NCBI GenBank assembly: GCA_020634975.1
Contig: JACKAQ010000002.1
Coordinates: forward strand, 93,456-157,455
Length of the DNA stretch: 64,000 bases
Source of the DNA: Calditrichia bacterium
GTDB lineage: Bacteria; Calditrichota; Calditrichia; RBG-13-44-9; J075
Direction of reading: 5' to 3'
The notes under the pieces were generated by a model that was not told where the DNA came from, did not search any database, and worked only from the letters and a program-made list of their open reading frames with translations. The first letter of the stretch is position 1. Each line of letters opens with the position of its first letter. A program made the translations under genes and the position numbers. Positions 7,089-48,538 of the stretch are shown one piece after another.

Positions 7089-9839
7089 TTATTTTAATAA
7101 CAACAGCTTACGTGATAGAATTTTTCCGCGAAATTTCAATTGATACACATACACGCCGGAGGCAAAATTCACAGCGTTCCAGCGTACGGAATAGCTGCCC
7201 GGTGCGTGAAATTGATCGACGATTGTGGCAACCTGCGATCCGTCGATCGCATAAATTTTCAGAGAAACCTGCCCGGGTTTTTCGATCGCGTAACCGATGG
7301 TCGTTTCCGGGTTGAAGGGATTCGGGTAATTCTGGAATAACGCAAAACCGGTTGCCGGTTCGATGCCCGGATCATCCCCGATGCCCACAGTTTGCGACGC
7401 CCAGCGCAGGTCGCCGAGTGTTTTGCCATCGCTGGCCAAACCGGCGAGCGGCGTGCCGTTCGGGAGCATAAAATTGCCGTTCGACGGATCGGCGTATTGC
7501 GGATCGATCCCGACCATTCCGGTACCGATGCCCGCGCTGCGATTGGCAATTACCGGACCAACGTTGAACGTATCGCAATAGCTAATTGTGGCAACCAGCC
7601 CTTCGATAATCACGGCTGCGCTGTCCGCCGGACTGTTGCTGAAAATGCTGTTCTTGATTTGCGCGGCATCGCAATCTTTCGCGTAAACGATGCCCGTTCC
7701 GTCGCTGCCGCAATTGTCAAACGTGACGTGATCGATGCGCAATCGCGGTTGCGGTGTGAATGGCACCTGATCGCCGCCATACACAAAAATTGCCTGTTTC
7801 GCGATATTCCAGAACGTGCAGTTGCTGAATTCCAGCCAGTCCACATTGAATTCGCTGCTGCCGATGGCTTCGTCTTTGAGGCTGATGCCGATACCGGCGG
7901 CATCGGAAAACAGGCAGTTGCTGAACACAATCGAATCCGCGAACGTGCCGGGATAGGCGTAAAAAAAGCTGCCGTCGCTGCCGTCGTTGACATCGCGGAA
8001 CAGGCAATTTTCGGCTTTCAAAATGTAATTGCGGTTCATCGGCGCATCAGTTGTTCGGATGAGATGCGTTGCCGGCGTTGCGCTGCCGGACATGCCGTCC
8101 AGTTCCAGATCGCTCAGATAAAGTTTGCCGCCATCGATAATTTCAAAAATGGTGCGCGACGTTGCACCCGCTGCCGTGTTGCGGATCACCGGACGATCGG
8201 TGCTGTCCGCCGCGCGGATGGTCAGCGCAACGGATACCGCGATGTTGCCGTCGTTGGGAAATTCGCCGGGCAGGAGTTCGAGAATATCGCCGGGCAAAGA
8301 CAGTTGCACCGCATCCGAAAGCGCGTTGGCTCCCGGCGCAACCTGTTTCACGGAAATCGAGAGCGGATACCAATCCGCACCGGTGTTTTCACCGGAAACC
8401 GGGCGAATGAGGATCGGCTCTGCGGAAAATTCATCCGCGCCGATGTCTTTGGCTGCATCGCGTGGTTGACCGTCCACGTCGTTTGTAACGTCCGGGTAAT
8501 TGCCAACCGCCGCATCAATCAGCGGACTGGTATTTTCCGGTCGCCACAGCGAATCAATGGCAAGTACCAATTGCGGATCGACAGCGGTTATGCCGGGATT
8601 GGCATCGATGCCCAGCGGCGAGCCGAACATCACGTTACCCTCGTATTGCATGTTGACCGGCGTGTCCTCGTAATCGATAATCTGTCCGCTGTTGGTCGTG
8701 TAAATCACGTTATTGGCAATCATGCAGTCGAGCGGTGGTAGCGATAACTCGCTATCTTTTCCCGCGCCGACCAAAATCGTGTTGCGGCAATTCACAAAAG
8801 TATTGAACATCACCAACGCACGTTTCACCTGAAAATAGCGGTTCAGCGGTGAATTCGGCACGCCATTCATAAAAACAAGCGGGCTGTGATAACCGCTGCC
8901 GTATAAATCCTGGAAATAGTTGTTGTAAACTTTGTGGTCCTCACCGATGATGCGCACGCCGCCCGCGCCGGTGTTGTTCGCACCGAAAAAGAAGTTGCCG
9001 TAAACCTCTGCAAAATTGCCGTGGCGCAGCGTGAGAATCCCGTCGCAATTGTAAAAAGTGTTGTAACGGAAGGTGTTGTGACCGGATTTGTTGGAAATGA
9101 TTTCGGTTTCGCCGTTGCATTCCTCAAAATAATTGTATTCAACGGTCGTGTAGGAATCATACATCGACCAGTCGCTGGTGCCGATGCGAATGGTCTCGCC
9201 GCCGTTGAAACCGAGTTCCGGACGGAAGGCAAAATAGTTGTGATCGATCCGGTGATAATTCGGCGTATTCGACAACCAGACCACCAGCGTTGTGCCGGAG
9301 TGGGTTTTGTTGCGGAAATAGCAGTGATCGACGCGGTTGTTTACGCCATACAGCGACACCCATTTGTAATCTGTGTTGATGTTCGATGGGTTGTAATCGA
9401 CGATGACCGTGTTGGTCAATCGCGAGTGGTTGGCGAGATTTCCGCTGTTTTCCCGAAATTCAATGACCGAACCGGAGGGACGGCTGCCGCCTTTGAAATA
9501 CAATCCGGATACAATCAGGTAACTCCCGGCAATGCGCAATCTGGACGATCCGTTGAGCAACACGCGACCGGGCGTTTCTGCCCGCAGCAAAATGGAATCG
9601 CCTTCCGTTCCATTGGCTTTGAACAGGATTTCTGCGTTTGTCCAGATGCCGTTGGTCATCGTGATCGTATCGCCGGGCTGAACTTGCTGCAGCGCCGCGG
9701 AAATTTCGGAAGGCGTCGAAGCCCAAAATTCCTCCGCGATCAGCGAAACGGGTAACAGCAACACAGCCATTATCCATAATTTTCCAAAAAAGCGGGAACG
9801 CCCGGAGGCGCTCCCATGTGCACAAATTTCATTACTCAT
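7089..9839 (-). CDS. PL6-family (chondroitinase B / alginate lyase fold) polysaccharide lyase with second beta-helix domain and T9SS CTD
   Basis: 916-aa ORF. N-terminal PGDTITMTNGIWTNAEILFKANGTEGDSILLRAETPGRVLLNGSSRLRIAGSYLIVSGLYF, then NGGETIRIG, GETEIISNKSGHN and GILTLRHGN blocks typical of PL6 catalytic and Ca sites. Ends FQNYPNPFNPETTIGY...GVYVYQL...RKLLLLK. Confidence 0.75.
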   Translation of the reverse strand: MSNEICAHGSASGRSRFFGKLWIMAVLLLPVSLIAEEFWASTPSEISAALQQVQPGDTITMTNGIWTNAEILFKANGTEGDSILLRAETPGRVLLNGSSRLRIAGSYLIVSGLYFKGGSRPSGSVIEFRENSGNLANHSRLTNTVIVDYNPSNINTDYKWVSLYGVNNRVDHCYFRNKTHSGTTLVVWLSNTPNYHRIDHNYFAFRPELGFNGGETIRIGTSDWSMYDSYTTVEYNYFEECNGETEIISNKSGHNTFRYNTFYNCDGILTLRHGNFAEVYGNFFFGANNTGAGGVRIIGEDHKVYNNYFQDLYGSGYHSPLVFMNGVPNSPLNRYFQVKRALVMFNTFVNCRNTILVGAGKDSELSLPPLDCMIANNVIYTTNSGQIIDYEDTPVNMQYEGNVMFGSPLGIDANPGITAVDPQLVLAIDSLWRPENTSPLIDAAVGNYPDVTNDVDGQPRDAAKDIGADEFSAEPILIRPVSGENTGADWYPLSISVKQVAPGANALSDAVQLSLPGDILELLPGEFPNDGNIAVSVALTIRAADSTDRPVIRNTAAGATSRTIFEIIDGGKLYLSDLELDGMSGSATPATHLIRTTDAPMNRNYILKAENCLFRDVNDGSDGSFFYAYPGTFADSIVFSNCLFSDAAGIGISLKDEAIGSSEFNVDWLEFSNCTFWNIAKQAIFVYGGDQVPFTPQPRLRIDHVTFDNCGSDGTGIVYAKDCDAAQIKNSIFSNSPADSAAVIIEGLVATISYCDTFNVGPVIANRSAGIGTGMVGIDPQYADPSNGNFMLPNGTPLAGLASDGKTLGDLRWASQTVGIGDDPGIEPATGFALFQNYPNPFNPETTIGYAIEKPGQVSLKIYAIDGSQVATIVDQFHAPGSYSVRWNAVNFASGVYVYQLKFRGKILSRKLLLLK

Positions 9840-11251
9840 TTCAGAAGCATCATCTTTCTGGTTTCGGATGTTACGCCGTTTACATCCAGTCTGTAAAAAT
9901 AAACGCCGGAAGTCAGACCGCTGGCATCGAACGTTACTTGCTGTTCACCGGCTGACTGGATTTCGTTCACCAATGTGGTTACTTCCGCACCGGTGATATC
10001 GAAAACGCGCAGCACAACCGCGCCGTTTTTCGGCAGAAAATAGCTGATCACCGTTCCCGGGTTGAAAGGGTTCGGGTAATTTTGGCGCAGATAAAATTCG
10101 ACTGGTGTGTTGAAACGATCATCGTCGATACCTACCGCATCGCAGTTGCCTGCCCAGCGTTGATCGCTGATCGCCACGCCGCCAAAGCCTTTGTTGCACA
10201 CTTGCGAATTGTTGGCAAGGGTGTAATCCAGATTTCCGGGATCGGCGTAATTGGGATCGTATCCATAAACTGTGGATGAATCGACCGTGCCGCCTTTGGT
10301 TGCGCTGATGCGACCGGAACCGGGCTCCGGCGCTGTAAACGAATTCACGTTGAACGTATCGATATGGCTGACAACCGAGCCGAGTTCCTGAATTTGTAAA
10401 ACATAATCATCGCGACCGTGACCGGATTCCCGGGAATTGGTTACCAGAATATTCCGGGCGATTGTACCGCGATTGTTTTTCACAAACATCATCCGGGTTG
10501 CGCTGGCGTTGACGGTCAGGTTTTCGAATAATGCGTAAGCATCTTGGGTGCTGGTGTCCAGATCTGCATAAAAACGGATGCACTCGGCATCGATATTTGT
10601 GAATGTGCAGTTGCGAACAATCAGCGAATCGAGTGCGCGATCGATGGGATATTTTTCCGTTTCGGAGATGCGGATCGCTTCGTATCCGGTGTTGGCGAAC
10701 GAGCAATCTTCGATGCGAATCGTTCCGGCATCCACGCCTGTCAAAAAGTAAAATCCGTGACCATCTTTCGATAAGTCTTTGTCTTCATAAAAGTTAACGA
10801 AATCGCAATTGCGAATGGTTACGTTTAAACCGACTTTCGGCTGCGGGAATCCGTCCGGACCTTCGCCGACGCGAATGGCGTATTTCATGCCGTGGGTTGC
10901 CGGGTGTCCGCCATCAAAAATGACACCTTCCACAACAAAATCATTGTGAACGCGGAAAATTTCCAACTGGGTGCCGTTGGCGTCGCTGTGGGTGAGGATG
11001 GGTTTATTGGTCAATCCCGGTGCCGCAACAATGGTTAACGGGTGTTTAACTTGAAAATAAACCGTATCGGTGGTGGTGTACACGCCGCCATCGGTCACCA
11101 AAACCAACGAATCGATCATATTGTTGAACGCAAAATCCATAGCCAATTTGAAATCGAACTGATCGTCCACTTCAATTTTGCTGGCGAATAGCGGGTTTGC
11201 AAACATCAGCAGTATCATGCTGATAAAACCTGTTATCGCTAATTTCTTCAT
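9836..11251 (-). CDS. secreted beta-helix protein of an uncharacterised family, T9SS CTD
   Basis: Start set at ATG 11251 (MKKLAITGF...), preceded by AGGAGG. The longer track ORF only extends through the tandem repeats. Conserved block GYEAIRISETEKYPIDRALDSLIVRNCTFTNIDAECIRFY is shared with the protein at 19969-22917. CTD: RQNYPNPFNPGTVISY...RKMMLLK. ATGA overlap with the PL6 gene. Confidence 0.65.
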   Translation of the reverse strand: MKKLAITGFISMILLMFANPLFASKIEVDDQFDFKLAMDFAFNNMIDSLVLVTDGGVYTTTDTVYFQVKHPLTIVAAPGLTNKPILTHSDANGTQLEIFRVHNDFVVEGVIFDGGHPATHGMKYAIRVGEGPDGFPQPKVGLNVTIRNCDFVNFYEDKDLSKDGHGFYFLTGVDAGTIRIEDCSFANTGYEAIRISETEKYPIDRALDSLIVRNCTFTNIDAECIRFYADLDTSTQDAYALFENLTVNASATRMMFVKNNRGTIARNILVTNSRESGHGRDDYVLQIQELGSVVSHIDTFNVNSFTAPEPGSGRISATKGGTVDSSTVYGYDPNYADPGNLDYTLANNSQVCNKGFGGVAISDQRWAGNCDAVGIDDDRFNTPVEFYLRQNYPNPFNPGTVISYFLPKNGAVVLRVFDITGAEVTTLVNEIQSAGEQQVTFDASGLTSGVYFYRLDVNGVTSETRKMMLLK

Positions 11252-11277
11252 AATGCCTCCTGGTTTATTAAATGTGA

Positions 11278-11378
11278 GTAGATACAATTCATGAATTGTA
11301 TCTACCATTATCATGAATTGTATCTACCATTATCATGAATTGTATCTACCATTATCATAAATTGCATTTACCCATTGC
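11278..11378. repeat. 13-2-13 palindrome followed by three perfect and one degenerate 22-bp tandem repeats
   Basis: gtagatacaattc-at-gaattgtatctac at 11278-11305. Unit atgaattgtatctaccattatc at 11291-11312, 11313-11334 and 11335-11356. Degenerate copy ataaattgcatttacccattgc at 11357-11378. Lies in the 135-bp gap upstream of the gene starting at 11251. Confidence 0.9.
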
Positions 11379-11386: not shown

Positions 11387-12907
11387 TCAAAATTGATACG
11401 CGTAACCGAGATAAAAATTATTCAACGATTCCTGCACATAATTGGTGTTGCTGTAATAGGAATCGTGGTAGCGCAGCCGGCGCCATTCGTATGCTGCGTC
11501 GATGCGACCGAGATTCCACAATTTCAAACTGGCGCCGAAAGAATAGCTATCCGATGCGGGACCTTCGTCGTCGAAAGCTGCGCCGTCGGGAACAAACGTT
11601 ACCGGCAAGCTGCGATAGCCACCCATCACCGAGAGAAATTCCGTCGCGCGATATTCGATGCCAAATCGCAGTGCCCGGTAATCTGCCCATTTCTGGAACA
11701 ATGAGTCCATCGGCTGGCTGGTCATCCGGTAATCGGCATCGCCGTATGGCGCGATATCGATGTCCATCGCAAAAGTAAAATTATCCACCGGCGTAACACT
11801 CAGCCCGAGCTGGAAAGTTGCCGGAACATCAATTTCATCGGTGCCACTGCTGTTAGTTGTGGTTGCTGTGCCAATTCCGCTGTTCACAGTTTCGTTGGTT
11901 GACGCTAATTGCCAGTCCCGCGCAATGGTGTAGGGCAGCCCGATTTTGGCACCAACGTTAAATCGCTGGAATTTCAACAACATGCCCAAATCAAAACGGG
12001 TTGCGCTAAAATCAGATTTTCCAGTGGTTTGTGTGGTGAGCGTATCGTATGAAAACCGGAATTTATTGTTACCGACCAGATCAAAATATCCCACTTTGTC
12101 GAGCAATTGGCGGTCGTCGGTTTCGGCAGACATGACGTTTACGGCAACGCCCAGTTCCAGCATTTTGAACGCCTGAACCGCAACCGCGCCGTTGATGTTG
12201 GTAACATTTCCGTCCCGTTCGCGCAAAAAGCGATGCCAGTTAAAGCTGACCGTATCCGTTGTGGTACCAACCGGCGGATTGCCGTAGAGATTGAAACCGA
12301 TATGCGGATCGAGATAGGTATCGTTGCGATCGAAATCGTCGATCAGAATATTTTGCGAATATCCCGCAGCGACAACCAGTTGACGTCCGCCCAATGCGAA
12401 TGGCATTGCCGCCATCACATTATTCAAGCCGGATTCGCTGAGTTTTTGTTTCCAGTCCGCAGCTTCGTCGCTGAAAGGATCGAGCCCCATATCCGGTTCG
12501 CGGATCTCGTACGTCACCGAATCGAAACCGAGCGTTCCGGCCAATTCGTGATCCCACATGCCGTTGTATCGCGCTTCGGGCGTGTACAGCCCTTCCAGAT
12601 AAAACGGCAGCGTTTGGTAAATGCGGTTGGGGCGATATTCCTGATTTTCCTGCCAACTCCGGCTTTGGGATATCGAACCGATGGAAAGCTGCAACGAAGT
12701 GATGCCTGCCAAACCGGCCGGATTACGGAACAGATTGCCCAAATCACCGGAAAGCGCGGTAGTTGCACCGCCCATCGCCATGGCTTTGACACCCACATCC
12801 TGCGGCGTTGCCAATCCCTGAAAAGCCAGTTGATCTCCGCGACGCTGGGCAAAAAGGGATACTGTCACCAGCAATGTTGCTAAAACGATAAATACTTGTT
12901 TGTTCAT
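11387..12907 (-). CDS. outer-membrane beta-barrel protein, PorV/FadL-like
   Basis: 506-aa ORF with a signal peptide. N-terminal GVKAMAMGGATTALSGDLGNLFRNPAGLAGI matches the G-x-G-A-x-x-x-G-M-G-G-A...NPAGL signature shared by FadL and PorV barrels. Ends in aromatic YAYQF. Confidence 0.5.
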   Translation of the reverse strand: MNKQVFIVLATLLVTVSLFAQRRGDQLAFQGLATPQDVGVKAMAMGGATTALSGDLGNLFRNPAGLAGITSLQLSIGSISQSRSWQENQEYRPNRIYQTLPFYLEGLYTPEARYNGMWDHELAGTLGFDSVTYEIREPDMGLDPFSDEAADWKQKLSESGLNNVMAAMPFALGGRQLVVAAGYSQNILIDDFDRNDTYLDPHIGFNLYGNPPVGTTTDTVSFNWHRFLRERDGNVTNINGAVAVQAFKMLELGVAVNVMSAETDDRQLLDKVGYFDLVGNNKFRFSYDTLTTQTTGKSDFSATRFDLGMLLKFQRFNVGAKIGLPYTIARDWQLASTNETVNSGIGTATTTNSSGTDEIDVPATFQLGLSVTPVDNFTFAMDIDIAPYGDADYRMTSQPMDSLFQKWADYRALRFGIEYRATEFLSVMGGYRSLPVTFVPDGAAFDDEGPASDSYSFGASLKLWNLGRIDAAYEWRRLRYHDSYYSNTNYVQESLNNFYLGYAYQF

Positions 12908-12945
12908 GGTTTATGACCTCAATTTATGTCGCGCCTTGCCCACCG

Positions 12946-13917
12946 TTATTGTAAAGAAAGTCCCACCGAAAACCGGTGAACGCCGCTTAACAGATCGCCG
13001 TAATCGTTATACGAATAGTCAAAACGATAGCCTTTGTAATTCATGCCCATGCCGAGGGCAATGCCTTCTTCATCGTAATTCATTTTGTAGCCGCCGCGCA
13101 AAAACAGCAGATTGCTGAACCCGTATTCCAGCCCGACGTTGTATTGCTGGTCGTAATCGCGCGGTTGAACCATGTCGAATGCGACCTGAACCGAATGCGT
13201 TTCGGAAATGGTGCCGAGATTGGCGGACGGTCCCATCAAAAAGCCGCTGATGCCGATGTTGAAGGTTTGCGGCAGCGGAAAATCTTTATCGATAAACGCC
13301 ACATTTTGCCCGAAATGGCGCACCGCCGCGGAAATCTGCACCGTTCGGAAACCGGTGTTGTAAATCAACCCGCCGTCAAAAACCACGGCGCTGGCGCTTT
13401 CCAGCCACAAATCTTCCCGGACAAATTTGGCGGTGATGCCAAATGAAAATTGTTCAGTCAACGATCGCGCCCACGAAACGCCGAGAACCATCGCGCCCGG
13501 CGAAAATGTGTTACCGGTCAGTCCAGGCATGTACACATCGTTTTCGTTGAAACCGAGTTGCGAAACAGTGGTTTCTTCAATTTCTCCGACATCCGTCAGC
13601 AAAGCCTGAAACCCCAAAACGCCCCAGGTTCCGGCATTCCAGCCGATCGCCAGCGAGGTATGTTTTACATCAAAAAAGTAATCCATGTATGATGCTTCGA
13701 CATCGAACCGGCGAACGGTCGTCAGCGCTCCGGGATTCCAGAATACCGCATCCGCGCCAAAAACGGCAGCGGAATACGCCTCACCCATGCCGGTGGAGCG
13801 CGCGCTCATGCCCACTTTCAGAAATTGAAAAGAGGTGGTGCCCACTTTTTCAAATCCGAAAGCAAGGGTTGTTATCAAAAGCCCTAAGCTTATAATTTTA
13901 TTGAAATTGGTGATCAT
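12946..13917 (-). CDS. PorV/PorQ-family outer-membrane beta-barrel protein
   Basis: 323-aa ORF. GTTSFQFLKVGMSARSTGMGEAYSAAVFGADAVFWNPGAL closely resembles the PorV-family N-terminal signature. GAGGAG SD upstream. Confidence 0.65.
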   Translation of the reverse strand: MITNFNKIISLGLLITTLAFGFEKVGTTSFQFLKVGMSARSTGMGEAYSAAVFGADAVFWNPGALTTVRRFDVEASYMDYFFDVKHTSLAIGWNAGTWGVLGFQALLTDVGEIEETTVSQLGFNENDVYMPGLTGNTFSPGAMVLGVSWARSLTEQFSFGITAKFVREDLWLESASAVVFDGGLIYNTGFRTVQISAAVRHFGQNVAFIDKDFPLPQTFNIGISGFLMGPSANLGTISETHSVQVAFDMVQPRDYDQQYNVGLEYGFSNLLFLRGGYKMNYDEEGIALGMGMNYKGYRFDYSYNDYGDLLSGVHRFSVGLSLQ

Positions 13918-13927
13918 GATGATCTCC

Positions 13928-16168
13928 TCACTTGATTACCACAAATTTGCCATGCGTTTGTTTGCCTTCCGGAGTGGTGACCACATAAAAATAGACGCCG
14001 GAGGCAATTTCCTGATCGTTACGGGATGCCTGAAACCATGCGACAGAATACACCGGTGTGTTGTGTTCGATCGTTTCGATCAACTGTCCGGCGTATGAAT
14101 AAATGCGAATGGTGCATTCCCGGGGGAGTCCGTAAAACCCGATTTGTCCGGCGGTTGCGCCGCCGCCGCTAAATCCGGAGGAAATGCGGAAGGGGTTGGG
14201 AACGGCGTAAATTTTATCACCCTGTTCCGGGCTGAAATTATCCACCGATCCGATATTTTTTTCAAATTCCACAATATTGGTGCGACCGCTGGTGTTGCCG
14301 TTTTCATCGACCGAAATCACCGAATAAAAGCGTTTTTCGCCCACTTTGAAATTTTCATCGGTATCGATGAATTCATAAATATCGTCGCCGGTGACAGCGC
14401 CTTTTTGGAGCGTGCCGATCAATTCCCACGGTCCCATTCCGGCGATGCTCCGGTAAATCTGGAATTCCTGCAAATCGCCCATCAAACGGGGATGGGTAAA
14501 TGCTTCCAGATCGCGCGTCCAGCGAATGCGAACTTCTGCGCTGACCGTATTTTCGATCGTATAATTCGGGGCAGGGAAGGGGACGGGAATTTTATAGCTG
14601 CCGTCTTTCGGATAATCTTCCGGCCACACCGGCAGTTGCGGTTCTTCGCCGAGATACGCCGTAAACGCTTTGTGGGCAACCTGGGTAACGTTGCGAACGT
14701 CGCTGTTAACATAATCCGGGTAACCGTATTCCGTGAGATAGTTTTCAGTCATCACTTCGCCGTCAATTGTGTAGCGGCGATCCAGCGATGGCGTGTTTGC
14801 CCACTGCGTGATGGTTTGTCCGCCCTCGATGCGTTTGCCGGGCTGCGCGCCGTAACCAACTACTTCGGCAAGGGCGTATTCCAGTTTGTCACCGTGATTG
14901 AGGGTGTACGGTCCGAAAACGATGTGCTTTTGTCCCGCATCCGCGCTTTGGCGATAGGGATACGCGGCACGTCCGATCCAGCGCGGGCTCGGCGGCTCCG
15001 GCCAGGTGGTGCTGCCGGGGGCATATCTGCCGCTCCAGCGGTTGTCCGGATTGATCGATTCGACCATCATTTTGGAGCTGCGGGTGTTCCCGGTGCTCAC
15101 TTTGTTCGACCACGGCTGTTTGATGCGCAGGTTTTCCGACAATTCGTAATATTCGCCAAAATTGGTGCGTAAAATTTTCACCGCTTCGGATTCATTTCGC
15201 GAAAGATCGAACGGATCGACAATCGCGAGATGAGTGGTATCGTATTGCAACATCGCCATTCCCGGTGCCTGCGGACTGGTGAGTGCGCCGCCGTTCAAAC
15301 CGGTTTCGGCAAATTGCCGGAAAAGCTCTTTGTTCGGCTCCGGTTTTGCGATCTGGTTTTCGCTGCCGGTTCGCAAATTCATATTGAAAGACAGCCAGTA
15401 ATCCGCGTCCCAAAAACCGTTTTGGTCTCCGCGATAAATACCGCCCTCATACAGCCATTCCTGATAATGGCGCTGATAGCCATACATCGATGGCGCCCAA
15501 CCGTAAATGAATAATGGCATGAAATCACGCAGTTGCTCAGTTTGCTCGATGGTGCTTTCGTCGCCGTCTGTATCTCCGGTGTATTCGAGGGTGTATTCGT
15601 AAATGATCATATCATCGTAATCGGGATAGCTCCACGCCCGCGATGTCCGGGTGACGGTTACGCCGATAGGCGTTGCCCATTTCGCGATGATAATTTCTTC
15701 CGCTTCATCCGGGTTGTAATCCGGGTTAATGCTGCCGTCATCCAACAGCGGGAAATTCTCGATTTCCACGAGCGACAACGGATAGCTCCAGACATTCACG
15801 GTAACTTCCGCCTCGCTGGCGCCGATGCCGCCGCAAAAAGCATACATCCGGTTGGCAAGTTCCGGTTTGCTGGCGAGGTTGGCAGCCATATACATGCCGC
15901 CGCCGAGAATATTGTGTTGACCGCTGTAATCCAGCCCCTGCACAATCGTTGCGGAGCGGGACGGCCATTCCATCAACGGGAAAGAAGTCCGGTTGCCCTG
16001 CTCTCCGGTTTGCCAGCCGCGCCCGATTTCCCCGGTGTTGAACACGGTTTCGTGCAGCATGCCGCGATCGTGAATACGGAAATCCCGGAAACCCTGCGCA
16101 ACCATCGCCGGACTTACCGAAACGATCAACATCAGGATCAGTGCAGCCGTTTTTGTTAAGGTTTTCAT
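13928..16168 (-). CDS. secreted protein of unknown function with FN3-like domain and CTD-like Ig domain
   Basis: Start set at ATG 16168 (MKTLTKTAALILMLIVSVSPAMVAQG) after GGAGA. About 570 aa have no motif I recognise. An FN3-like segment follows (EVRIRWTRD...FQIYRS...RFYSVISVDENGNTS). A divergent CTD ends the protein: YAVPNPFR...GVYFYVV...GKFVVIK. Confidence 0.6.
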   Translation of the reverse strand: MKTLTKTAALILMLIVSVSPAMVAQGFRDFRIHDRGMLHETVFNTGEIGRGWQTGEQGNRTSFPLMEWPSRSATIVQGLDYSGQHNILGGGMYMAANLASKPELANRMYAFCGGIGASEAEVTVNVWSYPLSLVEIENFPLLDDGSINPDYNPDEAEEIIIAKWATPIGVTVTRTSRAWSYPDYDDMIIYEYTLEYTGDTDGDESTIEQTEQLRDFMPLFIYGWAPSMYGYQRHYQEWLYEGGIYRGDQNGFWDADYWLSFNMNLRTGSENQIAKPEPNKELFRQFAETGLNGGALTSPQAPGMAMLQYDTTHLAIVDPFDLSRNESEAVKILRTNFGEYYELSENLRIKQPWSNKVSTGNTRSSKMMVESINPDNRWSGRYAPGSTTWPEPPSPRWIGRAAYPYRQSADAGQKHIVFGPYTLNHGDKLEYALAEVVGYGAQPGKRIEGGQTITQWANTPSLDRRYTIDGEVMTENYLTEYGYPDYVNSDVRNVTQVAHKAFTAYLGEEPQLPVWPEDYPKDGSYKIPVPFPAPNYTIENTVSAEVRIRWTRDLEAFTHPRLMGDLQEFQIYRSIAGMGPWELIGTLQKGAVTGDDIYEFIDTDENFKVGEKRFYSVISVDENGNTSGRTNIVEFEKNIGSVDNFSPEQGDKIYAVPNPFRISSGFSGGGATAGQIGFYGLPRECTIRIYSYAGQLIETIEHNTPVYSVAWFQASRNDQEIASGVYFYVVTTPEGKQTHGKFVVIK

Positions 16169-16230
16169 TCTGTTATCTCCAAAAATTTCTTTCGTTTTCC
16201 GCATGACATTTTCAAATCGTTGATCCGAAA

Positions 16231-19086
16231 TCAGAATCGCAGATACATGCCAAAGCGATAATGGCGCGGTTGATTGGCAACCAGATACACGCCCCGGCTG
16301 GTGTTGTACGGATCGTTCTCGTATTCAGTCAGGAAAATGTCGTTTCGCAGATTCCAGTCTTCCGCGGTTTCTTTATCGCCGAATGCGCGGGAATATGAAA
16401 ACACACCCTGATTGAGCAGGTTGAACGCTTCGAAATAGAGATTAAACTGCTGTTTCTGAATGACAATCCCTTTTTCGATGCGCATTTTCCAATCTTTTTC
16501 ATTGGGCGTGCGTTGGTTAAATTGCAAGCCCTGACCGGTGTTGTCGAACGTGTACGGACGTCCGGTCATGTATCGGAAAGTGGTGCTGAATTTCATTCTG
16601 CCAAACGGGTGATAGCCCAACACGGAAAAAAAGTCATCTTCATTTGTGTTAAAGCGCAGGTTGAAAACCGCTTTGTGGGTTCGGTCGAAGTTGAGATACA
16701 CATCGCCGAGTGCCGGCAGGTTTTCGGTAAACAGCGCGCCGTCTAATCCGGCTTCCTGAAAGGTGAGTGGTGCATCCAACGTATTCGGGCGATTTGCGGT
16801 TGCAGTTTCGTAATTATAGCGGACATATCCGTTAATAAATCCGCCGGTTTTTTCGAAACTGATGTGAAATCCTTTGATGTCCGCATATTCCCGGTTGACA
16901 AATGTTTGGTAGGAAACATCCTGAAAATCTTTGTAAATGGCATCCTGAATCAAATTGGTAACATCTTTATAATATGCGCTGACATCCAGCCGGACATCCT
17001 CGGTGATGCCCTGCACCAAACCGAAATCGTATGAATTGGTTTTTTCCGGTTCCAACAGCGGATTGCCCAAATACACAATACCGTTGCTCGAATTTACCTG
17101 ATTGTAAAACACCTGGTTAAAGCTGGGACGCTGGGTAAACGTGCCGTAATTCAGGTGAAAAACAGAGTTTTCGGAAACGGGGAAAGAAACGCCCACACGC
17201 GGTTGAACGATCACTTTCATATCCACATTTTCAACGGCGTCGGGATCGCGGAACGGGGCGTACGGATTTTGAAAAAAGGTGGTTTTGAGATCGTAAAAAT
17301 CGACCCGCATACCAGCGTTGGCAATCATGCCGGAAAATTCCATTTTATCCTGAATAAAAAATGCGCCTTCGATGGGGAAGTTGCGGAAATTCAGATTCCG
17401 GAAGTTGCCGGGTGTGGACAAGCTTTGTTTCATATCCACATTCAGATCGTAATAGGAAAACTGCAATCCGGCTTTCAGCAGGTTGAAGCGGTTGATCTGG
17501 CTGCTCAAACTGGCATCGAGATTGAAGGAATGCACTTTTTCATCGCCGTAATCGTCCTCCGGACGACCAACGCGGTGATTGGATGGCGCAGTGTAATCCA
17601 CCCAGTTGGTGTTGTTCGAATAATCTTCGATAAATTCGCCGTCATCCAGCAATTCGATGCGCTGTTCGGTGAGCAAATTCAGCGATTTCATCCGCAAATC
17701 CATGTAAGTTGAATTGCTGAAAACGTGGTTCCAGCTAAACCCGAACTGCTGCGAAACCGAATTTTCTTTGGCGATACTCAGCGTCCGGTCGAACATCCAG
17801 CGCAGATACGCGCTGCCGATATCGTTGCGGAACTGGCGATCGTAAATATATTCAAATTTTATTTTGTCCGACACGCCGAGCTGATAAGTGATGTTCCCGA
17901 CAAATTGGCGATCGATATCCGCCTGTGTGGTCGGAATAATTGGCGAGATAAAATTTTGCCGGGTGGCAAAAAAGAGCTTCGCTTTTTTTGAAATCGGTCC
18001 GCCGGTGGAGAAATCGAGCCGGGTATCGTATCGGTTATCGTAATCCATTCCGACGCCGCGAACTGCCTGCATCCACAAAATTTGCGAAATCCGGGCAACG
18101 CGCAGCGAATCCTGATGGGTCAGGTTGCGCGGCGGCCACACATTAAACGGCGGCAAATATGTGGGTCCGAAACCGTAGCTGATATCATACAACGGATTCC
18201 CGTCGATCGGGTCCGGTTGCAGCCATTGTTCGAGATCCATCAGCAAATTGTAAAATTGCAAATATTGGGCATCGTAAATGCTGCCGGCTTTCGGGTCGTC
18301 CCCGGTGCCTGTCCATGTTTTGTAATATGGCAGGTTGGACGAAACTTCCATCCGGCTGTTCCATTTGTTGCCGCCCTCTTTGGTGACCATATTCACCACG
18401 CCGGATTGGGCATTGCCATATTCCGCGCTGAAACCGCTGGTGTAAACTTCCACCTCCTGCAGCGCAGTTGTGATGGGACGAAACGCGCGCGAACGGTTGA
18501 GCGGGTTCACAATGCTGCTGCCGCTGACGAGATACAACGCCTCGCCCTCGCGTCCGCCGCGGAAGTTTTCGCCAACCACATCCGCCTGCAAAGAAAGAAT
18601 ATCCGTCACATCCGTTACACCGGCGATGCTCTGAATTTCTTCTACCGTATAGGATTGTTTGGTGGCGGTAACATCTTTCTCAACGCCGAGCGGTTTGTAT
18701 GCGGTTACCAACACTTCTTCGGCTTCCACAGATTGAGTGGCCAGCTGAAAATCCAGCCGGGTGGTTTTGTCCACTTCAACCCGCACTTTTTGTTTCACCT
18801 GATCCTGATAACCAACGTAAATCACCCGAACGTTGTAAACGCCCGGTCGCAAATTGAGGATGAAAAAGAATCCGTCCACATCAGATGCGGCGCCGGATGG
18901 CGTGTCCAATTCCACAATTTCTTCGCCGTCCCATCGGGATTCGACGACGACGTTTGCGCCAATCAGCGCTTCGCCGGTTTCGCTATCGGAAATTTTGCCG
19001 GAAATTTTACCGGTTTCGCCGGCAAAAATCCCGAGAGATCCGCCCATCAATAGCGCGAGACACCACAGTATTTTTCGCACTATCAT
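16231..19086 (-). CDS. TonB-dependent receptor with N-terminal carboxypeptidase-regulatory-like domain
   Basis: 951-aa ORF. GKISGKISDSETGEALIGANVVVE...PGVYNVRVIYVGYQ (CarbopepD_reg fold), then a plug region and a long barrel. C-terminal YRFGMYLRF. GGGAGGA SD. Confidence 0.85.
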   Translation of the reverse strand: MIVRKILWCLALLMGGSLGIFAGETGKISGKISDSETGEALIGANVVVESRWDGEEIVELDTPSGAASDVDGFFFILNLRPGVYNVRVIYVGYQDQVKQKVRVEVDKTTRLDFQLATQSVEAEEVLVTAYKPLGVEKDVTATKQSYTVEEIQSIAGVTDVTDILSLQADVVGENFRGGREGEALYLVSGSSIVNPLNRSRAFRPITTALQEVEVYTSGFSAEYGNAQSGVVNMVTKEGGNKWNSRMEVSSNLPYYKTWTGTGDDPKAGSIYDAQYLQFYNLLMDLEQWLQPDPIDGNPLYDISYGFGPTYLPPFNVWPPRNLTHQDSLRVARISQILWMQAVRGVGMDYDNRYDTRLDFSTGGPISKKAKLFFATRQNFISPIIPTTQADIDRQFVGNITYQLGVSDKIKFEYIYDRQFRNDIGSAYLRWMFDRTLSIAKENSVSQQFGFSWNHVFSNSTYMDLRMKSLNLLTEQRIELLDDGEFIEDYSNNTNWVDYTAPSNHRVGRPEDDYGDEKVHSFNLDASLSSQINRFNLLKAGLQFSYYDLNVDMKQSLSTPGNFRNLNFRNFPIEGAFFIQDKMEFSGMIANAGMRVDFYDLKTTFFQNPYAPFRDPDAVENVDMKVIVQPRVGVSFPVSENSVFHLNYGTFTQRPSFNQVFYNQVNSSNGIVYLGNPLLEPEKTNSYDFGLVQGITEDVRLDVSAYYKDVTNLIQDAIYKDFQDVSYQTFVNREYADIKGFHISFEKTGGFINGYVRYNYETATANRPNTLDAPLTFQEAGLDGALFTENLPALGDVYLNFDRTHKAVFNLRFNTNEDDFFSVLGYHPFGRMKFSTTFRYMTGRPYTFDNTGQGLQFNQRTPNEKDWKMRIEKGIVIQKQQFNLYFEAFNLLNQGVFSYSRAFGDKETAEDWNLRNDIFLTEYENDPYNTSRGVYLVANQPRHYRFGMYLRF

Positions 19087-19141: not shown

Positions 19142-19903
19142 TTAACGCGCCATCCACCCGCCGTCCACGGTGAGCAAATGCCCGTTTACATAATCTGATG
19201 CTTTTGATGCGAGAAAAATAGCCACACCCGCCAGATCTGCCGGTGTTCCCCAACGTTCCGCCGGAATTCGTGCGCTGATCGCGCTGTTCCGTTCCGGATT
19301 TTCCCGCAGCGCTTTGGTGTTGTCCGTAACCATGTATCCGGGTGCAATTGCGTTAATGCAAATGCCATCCTTTGCCCATTCGTTTGCCAAAGCTTTGGTA
19401 ATTTGCGCGACCGCGCCTTTGCTGGCCGCATACGACGGCACCGTAATGCCGCCGGAAAAACTGAGCAGCGAAGCGATGTTGATAATTTTGCCATAATTCC
19501 GTTTCATCATATCCCGAGCGCAAAGCTGGCTCAAAAAGAACACGGTTTTGGCATTCAGATCCATCACGTCGTCCCAATCTTTTTCCGAGAAATCGATAGC
19601 CGGTTTGCGGCGGATAATCCCGGCATTGTTGACCAAAATATCCACTTTGCCGAAATTGTCCAGCGTGGCGTTAACCACCTGTTCCATCACTGCCATTTGG
19701 GAAAGATCGCCGTGCAACGTGAGCACTTTGCGACCCATTTTGCGAATTTGTGATGCAACTTCGTCCCTTTCGCGGTGATCAACCAGCACAATATCTGCGC
19801 CGGCGCTGGCAAGCCCCAACGACATGCCGGAACCCAAGCCGGTGCTGCCACCGGTGACAATTGCTGTCTTTCCTGATAAATCAAACCAATTCATAATAGT
19901 CAC
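19142..19903 (-). CDS. kduD: 2-dehydro-3-deoxy-D-gluconate 5-dehydrogenase
   Basis: 253 aa, collinear with E. coli KduD as I recall it: GKTAIVTGGSTGLGSGMSLGLASAGADIV, DILVNNAGIIRR, FSEKDWDDVMDLN, NEWAKDGICINAIAPGYM, ASDYVNGHLLTVDGGWMAR. Confidence 0.85.
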   Translation of the reverse strand: MTIMNWFDLSGKTAIVTGGSTGLGSGMSLGLASAGADIVLVDHRERDEVASQIRKMGRKVLTLHGDLSQMAVMEQVVNATLDNFGKVDILVNNAGIIRRKPAIDFSEKDWDDVMDLNAKTVFFLSQLCARDMMKRNYGKIINIASLLSFSGGITVPSYAASKGAVAQITKALANEWAKDGICINAIAPGYMVTDNTKALRENPERNSAISARIPAERWGTPADLAGVAIFLASKASDYVNGHLLTVDGGWMAR

Positions 19904-24268: not shown

Positions 24269-25564
24269 TTAAAACCCGAACCAGCGCGGTAACGCCAGCG
24301 TCAGTTCCGGGATTGAAACGATCAGAATAAGTGCGAAAATCATTGCGACATACATCGGGAGCAGCGGCTTCACGATTTCCGTTAGCGAAACTTTGGCGAC
24401 GCCGCAACCCACAAACAGCACGGTGCCGACCGGCGGTGTGCACAATCCGATGCACAAATTCAGCACCATCATGATCCCGAACAGCAGCGGATCGATGCCG
24501 ATGGTTTGGGCAACCGGCAGAAAAACCGGGGTAAAAATGAGAATCGCCGGTGTCATGTCCATAAATGTGCCGACGATGAGCAGCACCAGATTCATAATCA
24601 ATAAAATGACCAGCTTGTTTTCGCTGAGCGCCAGTAAAGTTGTGGTGATGTTTTGGGGAATATTTTCATACGACAGCACCCACGAGAGCGCCATCGATGT
24701 GCCGATCAGCAGCATCACCACCGCAGTGGTTCCGGCGGATTCCAGCAAAATGGATTCGAGATCGGAAAATTTGACTTCGCGATAAACGAACATCGCCAAA
24801 ATCAACGCATAAATAACAGCGATTGCAGCAGCTTCCGTCGCAGTAAAAATGCCCGCAACGATGCCGCCGATGACGATAAAAATCAGCGTGAGGCTGAGCA
24901 GCGCATCGCCCAAACGACGTCCGACTTCACTGGCAGAAACACGTTCGCCGCGACCGTAGCCTTCTTTTTTGGCGATAAACGCGGCAACCGCCATCAGCGC
25001 CAAACCGAGGATGGTGCCGGGAATATATCCGGCGATAAAGAGCGCACCAATCGAGACGCCGCCGCTTGCCAGCGAATAAATAATCAGCACATTGCTCGGC
25101 GGGATGATCAGCCCGGTGGTTGCGGAAGTGACGTTTACCGCCGCGCTGAAACCCGGATCGTAACCGTTTTCCACCATTCGCGGGTGCATAAATGAGCCGA
25201 TCGCCGCCGCTGATGCCACCGCCGAACCGGAAATCGCGCCGAACAGCATCGACGAAATAATGTTCACCAACGCCAGCCCGCCGGGAAACGAACCAACCAG
25301 CGCTTTGGCAAATTCCACCAGTCGTTTGGCGAGTCCGCCCCGCGCCATCAGCGTTCCGGAAAGGATGAAAAAGGGAATCGCCAGCAGCGTAAATTTGTCC
25401 AAACCTGTGGCAACCCGTTGCGCGATGGTGCTCACCGCCGGCGTAAAATCCACATTTACCATCAGTGTCAGCATCGTCGAAAGCCCGATGCTCACGGCAA
25501 TCGGCACGTTCAGCATCAGCAGAACCGCAAAACTGGCAACCAGAATGAAAACGTCAATAGTCAT
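24269..25564 (-). CDS. dctM: TRAP transporter large permease subunit
   Basis: 431-aa polytopic membrane protein with typical DctM organisation. Lies adjacent to DctQ and DctP homologues. Confidence 0.85.
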   Translation of the reverse strand: MTIDVFILVASFAVLLMLNVPIAVSIGLSTMLTLMVNVDFTPAVSTIAQRVATGLDKFTLLAIPFFILSGTLMARGGLAKRLVEFAKALVGSFPGGLALVNIISSMLFGAISGSAVASAAAIGSFMHPRMVENGYDPGFSAAVNVTSATTGLIIPPSNVLIIYSLASGGVSIGALFIAGYIPGTILGLALMAVAAFIAKKEGYGRGERVSASEVGRRLGDALLSLTLIFIVIGGIVAGIFTATEAAAIAVIYALILAMFVYREVKFSDLESILLESAGTTAVVMLLIGTSMALSWVLSYENIPQNITTTLLALSENKLVILLIMNLVLLIVGTFMDMTPAILIFTPVFLPVAQTIGIDPLLFGIMMVLNLCIGLCTPPVGTVLFVGCGVAKVSLTEIVKPLLPMYVAMIFALILIVSIPELTLALPRWFGF

Positions 25565-25608
25565 ATGCTTATCGAGGTTAAGTTACTGTTTTTTAATTTG
25601 ATAACAGA

Positions 25609-26076
25609 CTAATCTTCGGGATAAACCAACGCATCAATTGCGTAATAAATCATCAACATCCCGCTGATGGGAATAACGGTGTACACATAACCAACCGGCA
25701 CTTTGAACGCCGCAGAAAGCTGGTTCAGATACAGCGTCGTGTAAACCAATCGCGATCCGCCGTAAACAAAAACAATCACGGCAAATGCGATAACTGCAGA
25801 ATAAATAATAAGTTGTGAAACAGTTTTTGCGCGACCTTCCAATTTGCGGGTGAAAATATCGATGCCCAAATGGGCACGGTTCCGTAACGCCCAGGCAGCA
25901 CCGAGCAAACTGATCCAGATCAGCAAATACGTCGAAAGTTCCTCGGTGTACGAGCTGGGACTGTTGAGGACATAACGGGTGATCACCTGCCAGGTCACCA
26001 CAATGACCATCAGCGCCATCAGCCACACCAGAATTTTTTTCAACGCAGCGTCAATCAGTTGGGTTAAGGCTTTCAT
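25609..26076 (-). CDS. dctQ: TRAP transporter small permease subunit
   Basis: 155 aa with four hydrophobic spans. VITRYVLNSPSSYTEELSTYLLIWISLLGAAWA is DctQ-like. 4-bp overlap with the dctP stop. Confidence 0.8.
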   Translation of the reverse strand: MKALTQLIDAALKKILVWLMALMVIVVTWQVITRYVLNSPSSYTEELSTYLLIWISLLGAAWALRNRAHLGIDIFTRKLEGRAKTVSQLIIYSAVIAFAVIVFVYGGSRLVYTTLYLNQLSAAFKVPVGYVYTVIPISGMLMIYYAIDALVYPED

Positions 26077-27095
26077 TCTGTGGCTCCTTTCAGCGAATCT
26101 GCGGTTGCGGTGTCGTTCTCCGGTGGCAGATTCTGGATACGTTCTGCGAGCTTGCCCATTTCGGTGCCTTTCAGGTCATCGTAAATTGGCTGAACGGAAG
26201 CCAGAAACGGCTGTTTGTCCGGACGAATGACGGTAACGCCTTTCTCGACCACCGCTTTCAGCGATTCCTCGGTCATGTCATCCCATAATTTTCGCTGGAA
26301 TGCGACCGACTCTTGCACAGCCTGATCCAGCCATTGCTGTTCCTGCGGCGATAGTTTTTCCCAAACGTGGGTGCTCATCATCAGCACATCCGGCGGGGCG
26401 GAGTGTTCGTCCAAAACCAGATAATCGCAAAGCTCGAAGAATTTGTTTTGAAAAAAGTTAGGCGGATTATTTTCAGCACCGTCCACAACCCCTTGCTGCA
26501 ATGCGGAATACAGTTCGCCCCAAGCCAGCGGCGTTGCGTTTCCGCCGAGCAGGTTCACGGTCTGGATTTGCAGGTTGCTGCGCATCACCCGAATTTTTAA
26601 CCCGTTCAGGTCTTCCGGCGATTCAACGGCAGTGTTGCGCAGAAAAAAGCTGCGGAAACCGGCGTCGTAATAGCACAATCCGCGCAGCCAGTATTGTTCG
26701 CCTTTCAGCAAAATTTCCTGCCCGATTTCGCCGTTGAACACCTGCCAGTAATGATTCGCATCGCGGAACAAATAGGGGAGGGAATAAACGCCCATTTCCG
26801 GCACGAAATTTTCCACCACCGCGGAGGATACTTTCGCGATGTCCAGCGATCCCAACTGAAGCAATTCCAATGTTTCGCGCTCATTGCCGAGCTGGCTGCC
26901 GGGATACAAAATGACTTTCATTTTGCCGCCGGATAACGCTTCCAGCCGTTCACCCAAATGCGCCATTCCTTTGTGCACCGGTGAATTCACATCCAGCACA
27001 TGCGCCAGCCGCAGCGTGCGAACCTGTTCGCCGGATTGACACGCCAGCAGCAGTGCAACGCATCCGGCAAAAATTATGGTGATTGTTTTTTTCAT
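26073..27095 (-). CDS. dctP: TRAP transporter substrate-binding protein (lipoprotein)
   Basis: 340 aa. Lipobox LLACQSG. DctP-type blocks: LRLAHVLDVNSPVHKG, LKIRVMRSNLQIQTVNLLGGNATPLAWGELYSALQQGVVDGAENN. Confidence 0.85.
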   Translation of the reverse strand: MKKTITIIFAGCVALLLACQSGEQVRTLRLAHVLDVNSPVHKGMAHLGERLEALSGGKMKVILYPGSQLGNERETLELLQLGSLDIAKVSSAVVENFVPEMGVYSLPYLFRDANHYWQVFNGEIGQEILLKGEQYWLRGLCYYDAGFRSFFLRNTAVESPEDLNGLKIRVMRSNLQIQTVNLLGGNATPLAWGELYSALQQGVVDGAENNPPNFFQNKFFELCDYLVLDEHSAPPDVLMMSTHVWEKLSPQEQQWLDQAVQESVAFQRKLWDDMTEESLKAVVEKGVTVIRPDKQPFLASVQPIYDDLKGTEMGKLAERIQNLPPENDTATADSLKGATE

Positions 27096-42846: not shown

Positions 42847-42910
42847 TTGTTGAAAATATTAAAATTAGATACTTATTCATTTATGTTGATTCACAATGGA
42901 GGTAATTTTA

Positions 42911-46954: not shown

Positions 46955-47122
46955 TTTCAGAATGATGCGCCTGGTATTTCAATTTGATAATCCAGTTCTT
47001 GTGAAAATTATCCAAGTTGCTGTTTTTGTTGGATTTGAGAAAACACGAACTGTGTGGCACAGTTGTTGAACTTTATTGTTCGAATTACGGATCAAATTCT
47101 CAAATCGATAAAAGGAGTAACA

Positions 47123-48458: not shown

Positions 48459-48465
48459 TCGCAAT

Positions 48466-48498
48466 AAAAAAAGGGACGTGAAAAACTCCACATCCCTT
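48466..48498 (-). terminator. rho-independent terminator of the sodC/ferritin-like unit
   Basis: On the minus strand: AGGGAUGUG-N8-CACGUCCCU (one G-U pair) followed by UUUUUUU. Confidence 0.6.
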
Positions 48499-48538
48499 TA
48501 ACTGATTAACGAATCAGCATCGATTGCTCTATCGTGGA

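Follow-up and report, generated by a model that had tools for sequence, protein, structure and literature searches.

A 64,000-nucleotide (nt) stretch of the genome of a Calditrichia bacterium (GenBank assembly GCA_020634975.1, contig JACKAQ010000002.1, positions 93,456–157,455; hereafter the window, numbered from its first nucleotide) carries a compact four-gene cassette that encodes a TonB-dependent receptor, a 746-amino-acid (aa) protein that we call UNK, and two outer-membrane barrels, one of the PorV/PorQ family and one of the FadL family. From comparative genomics, combining sequence and synteny, we propose with moderate confidence that the cassette is an uptake core resembling the SusC/SusD (SusCD) pair, in which the surface partner of the receptor would be exported by a type IX secretion system (T9SS) through its C-terminal domain (CTD) and held by a dedicated PorQ-like barrel. 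An equal measure of trust seems appropriate for the view that, in this window, the cassette serves as the outer-membrane uptake core of an alginate utilization locus. The cassette comprises the following features:

16231–19086, minus strand: TonB-dependent receptor, 951 aa (PF00593 and CarboxypepD_reg matches)
13928–16168, minus strand: UNK, the putative 746-aa surface partner (T9SS CTD matches and conserved synteny)
14564–16096, minus strand: UNK N-domain, aa 25–535 (beta-rich in the AlphaFold2 (AF2) model)
14234–14563, minus strand: UNK FN3-like domain, aa 536–645 (AF2 model and Foldseek)
13931–14221, minus strand: divergent T9SS CTD of UNK, aa 650–746, VPNPF...GKFVVIK (TIGR04183, CHU_C and the C-terminus of the PorZ model)
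12946–13917, minus strand: PorV/PorQ-family barrel, 323 aa (NF033709)
11387–12907, minus strand: FadL-family barrel, 506 aa (PF03349, Toluene_X/FadL)

Families were assigned by profile searches with Pfam and NCBIfam-type models, each judged against its own cut-off. The open reading frame (ORF) of UNK spans 13928–16204 and encodes 758 aa from its first ATG; the second ATG, at 16168, gives 746 aa, which is also the length of a database protein that is 99% identical to UNK. With the 746-aa start, the intergenic gaps are 62, 10 and 38 nt, and the ORF calls therefore agree with the four tightly packed genes described in a first-pass annotation of this DNA, which had been made by a model from the sequence alone. 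In some related loci the cassette genes overlap by a few bases. A terminator scan of the intergenic gaps revealed no terminator-like sites, and a promoter scan was uninformative. All four proteins begin with a signal peptide.

The order of these genes is conserved across several phylum-level lineages. In a scan of one genome per species, relatives of UNK were found in 214 genomes, and synteny was counted in the best 80 loci, in which the four window proteins were searched by tblastn. The 80 loci belong to Calditrichia/Calditrichota, Ignavibacteriales/Melioribacteraceae (Ignavibacteria), Fidelibacterota/Neomarinimicrobiota and KSB1, with the taxon labels of metagenome-assembled genomes (MAGs) taken as deposited and a few of them doubtful. 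Essentially all share the same order and strand: receptor, UNK, PorV-like barrel, FadL-like barrel. The first-pass annotation had suggested surveying the neighbourhoods of UNK homologues, and had tied its proposal to conservation of the cassette in related genomes; the survey finds a receptor gene directly upstream of UNK in 78 of the 80 loci and, wherever the flanking sequence suffices, in every metagenome locus too, a PorV-like gene downstream in 77, a FadL-like gene in 73, and the full order in nearly all. Most of the missing neighbours fall at contig ends, and the others belong to L045, a disrupted locus, and to the fusion L071 described below. Several genomes carry two copies of the cassette. 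Chance co-location of the genes was rejected, as the same order recurs in about 150 independent loci. At the disrupted locus, on a Fidelibacterota chromosome (bin809, CP070656.1, 7479–10376), the receptor match is confined to the last ~157 aa, the match to UNK reaches only aa 712, and neither barrel has a match after it, a state that could reflect gene decay or assembly frameshifts.

Degradative genes accompany the cassette. Homologues of the beta-helix CTD protein, the polysaccharide lyase family 6 (PL6) enzyme and the 650-aa CTD protein of the window occur in 58–60 of the 80 loci (PL6 in 59), and genes for a GntR regulator, a PL17 lyase, a short-chain dehydrogenase/reductase (SDR) and a tripartite ATP-independent periplasmic (TRAP) transporter occur in some. 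Because the enzymes travel with the cassette, the orthologous group of UNK is an alginate-locus core common to phylum-level lineages.

The first three genes reach further than the fourth. An exhaustive HMMER search of 1.84 billion representative proteins with a profile of the UNK N-domain returned a compact family (224 matches, 38 of them below 1e-30), with a tail of 700–840-aa proteins that match mainly near ...WAT..G.TVTR.SRAWSYPDYDD.IIYEY..GD.DG. and for which Pfam gave no matches. In BLASTP comparisons these distant relatives show the same FN3 and CTD architecture and a C-terminal VPNP...IK, with ~25–35% identity to UNK and 23–47% among themselves; cluster members of the distant subfamilies include MAG proteins labelled Gemmatimonadota, Latescibacterota and Handelsmanbacteria. 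Across 79 metagenome loci, a receptor, an UNK relative and a PorV/PorQ-family barrel are encoded in this order in every locus with enough flank. In this set the FadL-like gene is confined to alginate-type loci, and most loci are without it. The surroundings of this triad vary: some loci hold a GH106 rhamnosidase, some PfkB with RhaT or a solute-binding protein, some a sulfatase with DUF3604, and TonB_C is found nearby. On marine contigs, genes for a glycerophosphodiester phosphodiesterase (GDPD), a neutral-ceramidase-like protein and a second UNK paralogue come after the triad (L102:3951–14905, with similar loci L101, L106, L109, L116, L119, L125–L128, L133, L134 and L141), which suggests uptake of lipid headgroups or membrane debris rather than of glycan. 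Because a constant outer-membrane core is thus combined with exchangeable catabolic genes, the triad behaves like the core of a polysaccharide utilization locus (PUL), and it appears from these comparisons to be a general module of lineages of the Fibrobacteres–Chlorobi–Bacteroidetes (FCB) superphylum: Calditrichota, Ignavibacteria, Fidelibacterota/Marinimicrobia and KSB1, with Gemmatimonadota, Latescibacterota and Handelsmanbacteria added on the strength of MAG protein labels.

We also offer, tentatively, a broader reading: that FCB lineages which rarely or never use SusD, those just listed among them, may pair nutrient-specific TonB-dependent transporters with a new family of T9SS-exported surface partners of ~750–840 aa, docked for good on a dedicated PorQ-like barrel by a specialized CTD that is retained. 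We consider this broader reading possible rather than established.

By its profile matches the 951-aa protein belongs to the TonB-dependent receptors; TonB dependence itself is a prediction. It matches PF00593 with 75 bits (cut-off 27), PF13620 with 56 bits and PF13715 with 53 bits, which bears out the CarbopepD_reg-type receptor recognized in the first pass. A signal peptide is followed by a CarboxypepD_reg domain (aa 28–115), a TonB-box-like EEVLVTAY, a plug and a large barrel; the TonB-box-like motif, which sits between the N-terminal domain and the plug, has the consensus EEVVVTAY over 68 aligned sequences. The receptor of a distant triad matches the SusC/RagA model TIGR04056 with 63 bits, at its N-terminus only. 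Another Fidelibacterota locus (L081:1–6507, minus strand, CP070638.1) holds a second CarboxypepD_reg TonB-dependent receptor, of 1107 aa, adjacent to the cassette and on the opposite strand. It lies beside a Laminin_G_3/fn3 protein and a FlgD_ig protein, both with CTDs, and may thus represent a different way of combining T9SS cargo with a receptor.

UNK has ~600 full-length homologues (47–99% identity, about 735–800 aa), all annotated as hypothetical. It occupies the place of SusD, directly downstream of a TonB-dependent receptor, and of the SusD criteria it fits position alone. SusD Pfam models found nothing in UNK at E ≤ 0.01, no SusD structure appeared in the Foldseek results for its models, and the AF2 model is predominantly beta, unlike the alpha-helical SusD fold, which is rich in tetratricopeptide repeats (TPRs). 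The N-terminus (MKTLTKTAALILMLIVSVSPAMVAQG) is Cys-free and ends in an AxA-like type I cleavage site, with no lipobox. Among the scanned window ORFs of 200 aa or more there is no SusD-family match, and the locus is thus SusD-less, as the first-pass annotation had it.

The AF2 model of full-length UNK, built with 28 homologues (predicted local distance difference test (pLDDT) 73, predicted template modelling score (pTM) 0.76), consists of a beta-rich N-domain, an FN3-like domain and a C-terminal beta-sandwich. The FN3-like domain, for which the top Foldseek matches are tandem FN3 arrays (probability 1.0), was not recovered by Pfam and is assigned from the model and Foldseek. The only profile matches of UNK are to CTD models: TIGR04183 with 25.5 bits, marginally over its cut-off of 23, and CHU_C with 21 (cut-off 27), with no match to PF18962. 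In addition, the C-terminus of the PorZ model matches the UNK CTD with 32.7 bits, and the best non-artefact PDB match of this domain is the PorZ CTD (5m11, E = 0.08, weak). Foldseek also pointed, weakly, to the CTD-bearing proteins PorZ (5m11) and PorU (6za2). In distant relatives the CTD either exceeds the threshold of the type-B-like CHU_C model (27.8 bits) or has no match. The FN3-like plus divergent CTD architecture proposed in the first pass therefore holds.

The CTD of UNK is unusually conserved. Over 77 orthologues, mean identity is 64% in the N-domain, 50% in the FN3-like domain and 64% in the CTD, whereas the CTDs of PL6, the beta-helix protein and other cargo in the same loci reach 33–45%; in PL6 itself the catalytic domain is 61% identical and the CTD 34%. 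UNK is also the most conserved component of the cassette (64%, against ~51% for the PorV-like barrel, 49% for the receptor and 42% for the FadL-like barrel). A signal destined to be cut off and lost should be under weaker constraint than the working part of its protein, and this pattern therefore argues that the UNK CTD has a lasting structural partner.

Searches gave no fold homologue for the N-domain, which contains conserved Asp-rich motifs (SYPDYDDMIIYEY..TGDTDGD). No Pfam family was found for it in any of the ~600 homologues, a PDB profile search with the UNK family was empty, and Foldseek gave weak similarity, with TM not above 0.24, to beta-sandwich domains from the glycoside hydrolase (GH) families GH116, GH94 and GH63, as well as a low-TM match to such a domain from GH144. 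Modelled alone with 16 sequences, the N-domain scored worse than in the full-length model (pLDDT 57), and Foldseek with this model returned nothing below E = 0.008. The impression of the first pass that ~570 aa match nothing is thereby upheld, and no characterized enzyme family, an outcome it had named as fatal to its idea, emerged from Pfam/NCBIfam, the PDB or Foldseek. A known alginate-lyase fold was rejected for the N-domain, as there was no Pfam or PDB signal, but only provisionally, in view of the moderate to low confidence of the models.

That UNK is instead a surface enzyme that founds a family of its own, such as a lyase or hydrolase acting on uronates or oligosaccharides, still anchored by the PorV-like barrel, is unlikely in our estimate but is the alternative that survives best. 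Among the invariant positions of UNK are many His, Arg, Tyr, Glu, Asp, Gln and Trp, its only structural likenesses, weak as they are, are to the beta-sandwich domains of glycoside hydrolases and phosphorylases, and its N-domain occurs fused to pectate-lyase-like beta-helix modules. Yet UNK matches no catalytic fold or family, several lyases are already encoded in the locus, and contexts as different as lyase, GH106, sulfatase, GDPD and ceramidase genes are hard to fit with one chemistry. The residues conserved superfamily-wide also speak against an enzyme: in a comparison of the two subfamilies, Gly and Pro make up most of the invariant columns, Tyr, Asp, Trp, Val, Ala and Asn supply a few more, and the nearly invariant columns add many Asp in Ca-site-like motifs.

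The barrel encoded directly after UNK belongs to the PorV/PorQ family. The 323-aa protein matches NF033709 over its full length with 182.4 bits (cut-off 90; the relative in L102 scores 175.7 bits), whereas it falls far short of the PorQ (NF033711, 84.8 bits, cut-off 220) and PorV (NF033710, 55.8 bits, cut-off 250) equivalogs; PorP_SprF scores 21.4 bits, under its cut-off. The protein is PorQ-sized, and its closest solved relative is Flavobacterium johnsoniae PorV (6h3i, E = 0.003). We judge from these scores that it represents a paralogous branch of PorV/PorQ and not a core T9SS component. A role as the organism's core PorV or PorQ was rejected, as the equivalog scores lie far under cut-off and the gene is duplicated per locus.

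The 506-aa protein belongs to the OMPP1/FadL/TodX barrel family: it matches PF03349 with 44.3 bits (gathering threshold 29.7), and its annotation at NCBI is that of an OmpP1/FadL transporter, under the name 'outer membrane protein transport protein'. Its top NCBIfam match is BamG (NF053685, 46.6 bits, cut-off 250), followed by PorV_fam (39 bits, cut-off 90), both weak, and no solved relative was found by sequence. The FadL-like family comprises 240 proteins about 500 aa long, and the sizes of several of the listed contigs coincide with those of contigs carrying UNK homologues. The PorV/FadL-type N-terminal signatures read by eye in the first pass are present in both barrels: each retains the hatch motif NPA(A/G)L, with conservation of 90% or more among the window protein and its orthologues (66–74 aligned sequences; NPAGL in 66 aligned sequences for the 506-aa barrel). 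The profile searches for PorV/PorQ, FadL and SusD recommended there accordingly gave a match, a match and none. Its concern that both barrels might be ordinary FadL channels without a link to T9SS cargo is answered by the PorV/PorQ membership of the 323-aa protein and by the strict linkage of both barrels to a gene for putative T9SS cargo. In 49 of the 61 loci with enough flank, a homologue of the beta-helix CTD protein starts less than 900 nt from the FadL-like gene.

These barrels could alternatively be shuttles or tethers for the CTD enzymes of the locus and not partners of UNK and the receptor, a view that we rate as improbable. It draws on the T9SS CTDs that profile scans found on seven window proteins, on the known function of PorV as a shuttle of CTD cargo (PMC5562754), and on the restriction of the FadL-like barrel to alginate loci, which are rich in CTD enzymes. 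The distribution of the PorV-like gene is against it. This gene follows that of UNK directly in every locus with enough flank, even in L086 and L084, whose precomputed Pfam annotation marks no further gene as CTD cargo, and whether it is present does not depend on how many CTD enzymes a locus has; the ordinary and poorly conserved type-A CTDs of these enzymes should be a job for the general T9SS. A natural fusion is informative here. In the Candidatus Neomarinimicrobiota MAG BH27 (L071:8001–12287, plus strand, JAERTH010000047.1), an ORF of at least 1429 aa that runs to the contig end joins the N-domain and FN3 of UNK (aa 1–641, 56% identical) to Beta_helix, DUF5123, a dockerin-like segment and a canonical Por_Secre_tail. 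It adjoins neither a receptor nor a PorV-like gene, its neighbours being GH30 and a CBM9/PKD CTD protein, and the same MAG has a normal four-gene cassette elsewhere (L041). An UNK body with an ordinary CTD and no PorV-like neighbour supports the pairing logic of UNK and the barrel. Other representatives also fuse part of the N-domain to beta-helix modules. Of the two ideas in the first-pass annotation, a new kind of glycan capture complex is now better supported by comparative genomics, the triad being a PUL-like core with exchangeable enzymes, and a locus-specific export or tethering module less so, as the PorV-like gene tracks UNK and the receptor rather than the enzymes and is absent from the fusion locus.

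That the genes adjoin without any connection in function (an ordinary receptor, a secreted protein that has nothing to do with it and ordinary FadL-type channels for hydrophobic compounds) is very improbable: the 506-aa protein does pass the Pfam FadL/Toluene_X threshold and bears a transport-protein name at NCBI, and interactions among the cassette proteins are deduced from sequence and synteny, but order and orientation are invariant in ~150 loci of several phylum-level lineages with very different enzyme contexts, the gaps are 10–62 nt without terminators and give way to overlaps in some loci, and the FadL-like family is similar in small size to the UNK family, with several coinciding contig sizes.

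The gene families, the invariant synteny, the exchange of enzyme sets around it and the unusual CTD conservation are observations. For the SusCD-like uptake core, we propose the following mechanism, in which we infer each physical interaction, the retention of the CTD, the binding of ligand and the direction of transport. UNK would be exported by the T9SS via its CTD, which would not simply be discarded but would dock UNK on the adjacent PorV/PorQ-family barrel, as PorZ docks on PorQ. The FN3 stalk and beta-rich N-domain would thereby be kept at the surface beside or over the SusC-like receptor. There, the N-domain could take oligo-uronates from lyases displayed by the T9SS and pass them to the receptor for TonB-driven import, a role equivalent to that of SusD or a surface glycan-binding protein (SGBP) in Bacteroidota. 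Periplasmic PL17-like, KduI and KduD enzymes, together with the TRAP transporter, would finish catabolism. The 506-aa FadL-family barrel might act as a second docking platform, maybe for the beta-helix/DUF5123 CTD protein that is usually encoded next; this step is suggested by analogy with BamG–BamH and by the beta-helix protein, which lies next to the barrel gene and is fused to the UNK N-domain in L071.

Several points weigh against this model. The receptor has no match to TIGR04056 (cut-off 368 bits) at E ≤ 0.01, and its Plug scores 19 bits, under the cut-off of 23.9, with the plug of a relative passing at 35 bits. The N-domain has no detectable likeness to SusD, to any carbohydrate-binding module (CBM) or to a solved fold, and ligand binding by it is therefore a positional analogy; the models themselves are of moderate confidence at best (full-length pLDDT 73, N-domain pLDDT 57). 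An enzyme, too, would account for the very high conservation of UNK and for its numerous charged and aromatic residues that never vary. Conservation of the CTD could be explained by a strict, lineage-specific T9SS recognition step in place of retention. The contacts between UNK, barrel and receptor are predictions from sequence and gene order, and the proposed role of the FadL-like barrel, built on analogy, is the weakest and most speculative step.

In the window, the cassette is embedded in a long minus-strand gene array that is typical of an alginate or polyuronate locus. Besides an SDR and KduI/KdgF, the array and its surroundings include:

19142–19903, minus strand: KduD-type dehydrogenase, immediately upstream of the receptor (TIGR01832, 367 bits, cut-off 339)
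9836–11314, minus strand: beta-helix/DUF5123 protein, 492 aa, with a canonical T9SS CTD (Por_Secre_tail, 36 bits)
7089–9839, minus strand: chondroitinase B-like lyase of family PL6, carrying a CTD and DUF4957/DUF5123 domains (PF14592, 358 bits)
from 4911, from 9836 (the 492-aa protein above) and from 19969: three CTD-bearing beta-helix proteins, two with DUF5123/DUF4957-type domains
24269–25564 and 26073–27095: TRAP transporter, DctM and DctP
28307–30502: PL17-like lyase
31501–32247: GntR regulator

In the 492-aa protein, the DUF5123 (31 bits, cut-off 35.1) and Beta_helix (21 bits, cut-off 25.9) matches are below threshold. Between DctM and DctP there is a gap (25565–26072) roughly as long as a gene for a DctQ small subunit. 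The chromosome of a Calditrichia MAG (OZ245730.1) matches the window, with 99% protein identity over the partner. Of the elements of a PUL in the Bacteroidota sense, the locus has carbohydrate-active enzymes (CAZymes), a GntR regulator and a receptor, and the adjacent susC–susD pair is absent; it works like a PUL without fitting the formal definition.

Other parts of the window hold further features. Immediately beyond the GntR regulator lies a gene of the fatty-acid hydroxylase family (32518–33327, plus strand), adjoined by one for a 734-aa protein with DUF6851, a match to a vanadium-chloroperoxidase-like helical bundle and a T9SS CTD (33399–35603, plus strand). Further uncharacterized T9SS cargo was noted in the form of a Sortilin/BNR-like protein of 1333 aa, which combines PKD domains with a T9SS CTD (42896–46897, plus strand), and, near it, a 714-aa protein with only faint PKD/DUF11 matches (39860–42004, minus strand). 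A 211-aa ORF (47054–47689, plus strand), in which the start of Pyr_redox_2 is joined to a Pyr_redox_dim domain, resembles an internally truncated pyridine-nucleotide disulfide oxidoreductase and is possibly a pseudogene. From 48000 to 54000 the G+C content is 0.40–0.44, compared with about 0.51–0.53 in the alginate locus; this region has only short ORFs at 48.5–50.6 kb, followed by a 418-aa protein of five BON domains (50601–51857). ARAGORN predicts a tRNA-Leu (CAG) at 55503–55586 (minus strand), and a scan of the whole window at Rfam gathering thresholds reported zero families, tRNA included.

SusC/SusD pairs are the marker by which PULs are found and classified. PUL prediction therefore largely misses lineages without SusD, although sediments, the subsurface and the ocean harbour many abundant degraders among them. 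If our interpretation is correct, the triad would provide a searchable signature of uptake loci in Calditrichota, Ignavibacteria, Marinimicrobia/Fidelibacterota, KSB1 and related groups, and a several-hundred-member family annotated as hypothetical would gain a role. The cassette would then be an analogue of SusCD built on the T9SS, representing a second, independent PUL-like paradigm, and barrels of the PorV/PorQ and FadL families would have a new non-secretory job, extending the FadL/PorV-type docking theme of PorQ–PorZ and BamG–BamH from machinery to nutrient acquisition. The favoured reading predicts CTD retention, 1:1 complexes and uptake phenotypes.

Compared with known alginate systems, the locus in the window follows the same catabolic logic. 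The alginate receptor loci of Proteobacteria and the alginate PULs of Flavobacteriia combine PL6/PL17, KdgF/KduI, a DEH-reductase-type SDR (acting on 4-deoxy-L-erythro-5-hexoseulose uronate), GntR and a TonB-dependent importer, and use a receptor alone or SusC/SusD. We know of none that has a T9SS-exported partner with dedicated PorV/FadL-type barrels, and no published description of the cassette was found in the open-access literature, including the Melioribacter and Caldithrix genome papers.

For the proposed docking, there are three precedents. In Porphyromonas gingivalis, PorQ anchors PorZ and PorV anchors PorU (PMC5562754), so that a T9SS-exported protein is held, ~1:1, by a barrel of the PorV/PorQ family, as proposed here for UNK; the UNK CTD is closest to the PorZ C-terminus and the 323-aa barrel is the size of PorQ. 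The barrel of the cassette is, by contrast, non-orthologous, its unit adjoins a TonB-dependent receptor in catabolic loci rather than the secretion machinery, and retention of the CTD would be the counterpart that we infer. Barrels of the PorP/SprF type, encoded next to their cargo, anchor type-B CTD cargo (PMC9143113), and the SprB–SprF and PG1035–PorP pairs share with the cassette a barrel gene directly after the cargo gene, and the CTD of the UNK family is borderline CHU_C-like (21 bits in UNK and 27.8 in a relative); here, however, the barrel is of the PorV/PorQ family and the cargo is not an adhesin but is coupled to a TonB-dependent receptor. BamG, a FadL-family barrel, anchors the surface protein BamH (PMC12611786), and thus offers a model of a 14-stranded FadL-family barrel that serves as a docking pillar and not as a channel for hydrophobic compounds, with BamG as the top NCBIfam match of the 506-aa protein. 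The differences are the score (47 versus 250 bits), the lipoprotein nature of BamH, the lack of a BamA link here and the confinement of the 506-aa barrel to alginate-type loci.

The closest functional analogue is SusC/SusD (RagA/RagB). Both systems have a TonB-dependent receptor of ~950–1030 aa with an N-terminal CarboxypepD_reg-type domain and the gene for a surface partner directly after it; in both, the enzyme content around the pair depends on the substrate, and several paralogous copies per genome are possible. By membership the cassette is no SusCD pair, as UNK has no SusD match, is beta-rich rather than TPR-helical, is a non-lipoprotein and has a T9SS CTD together with its own PorV/PorQ-family barrel, and as the receptor falls under the TIGR04056 cut-off. 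TonB-dependent uptake loci with a surface accessory protein are known; the cassette is one that contains an uncharacterized protein family.

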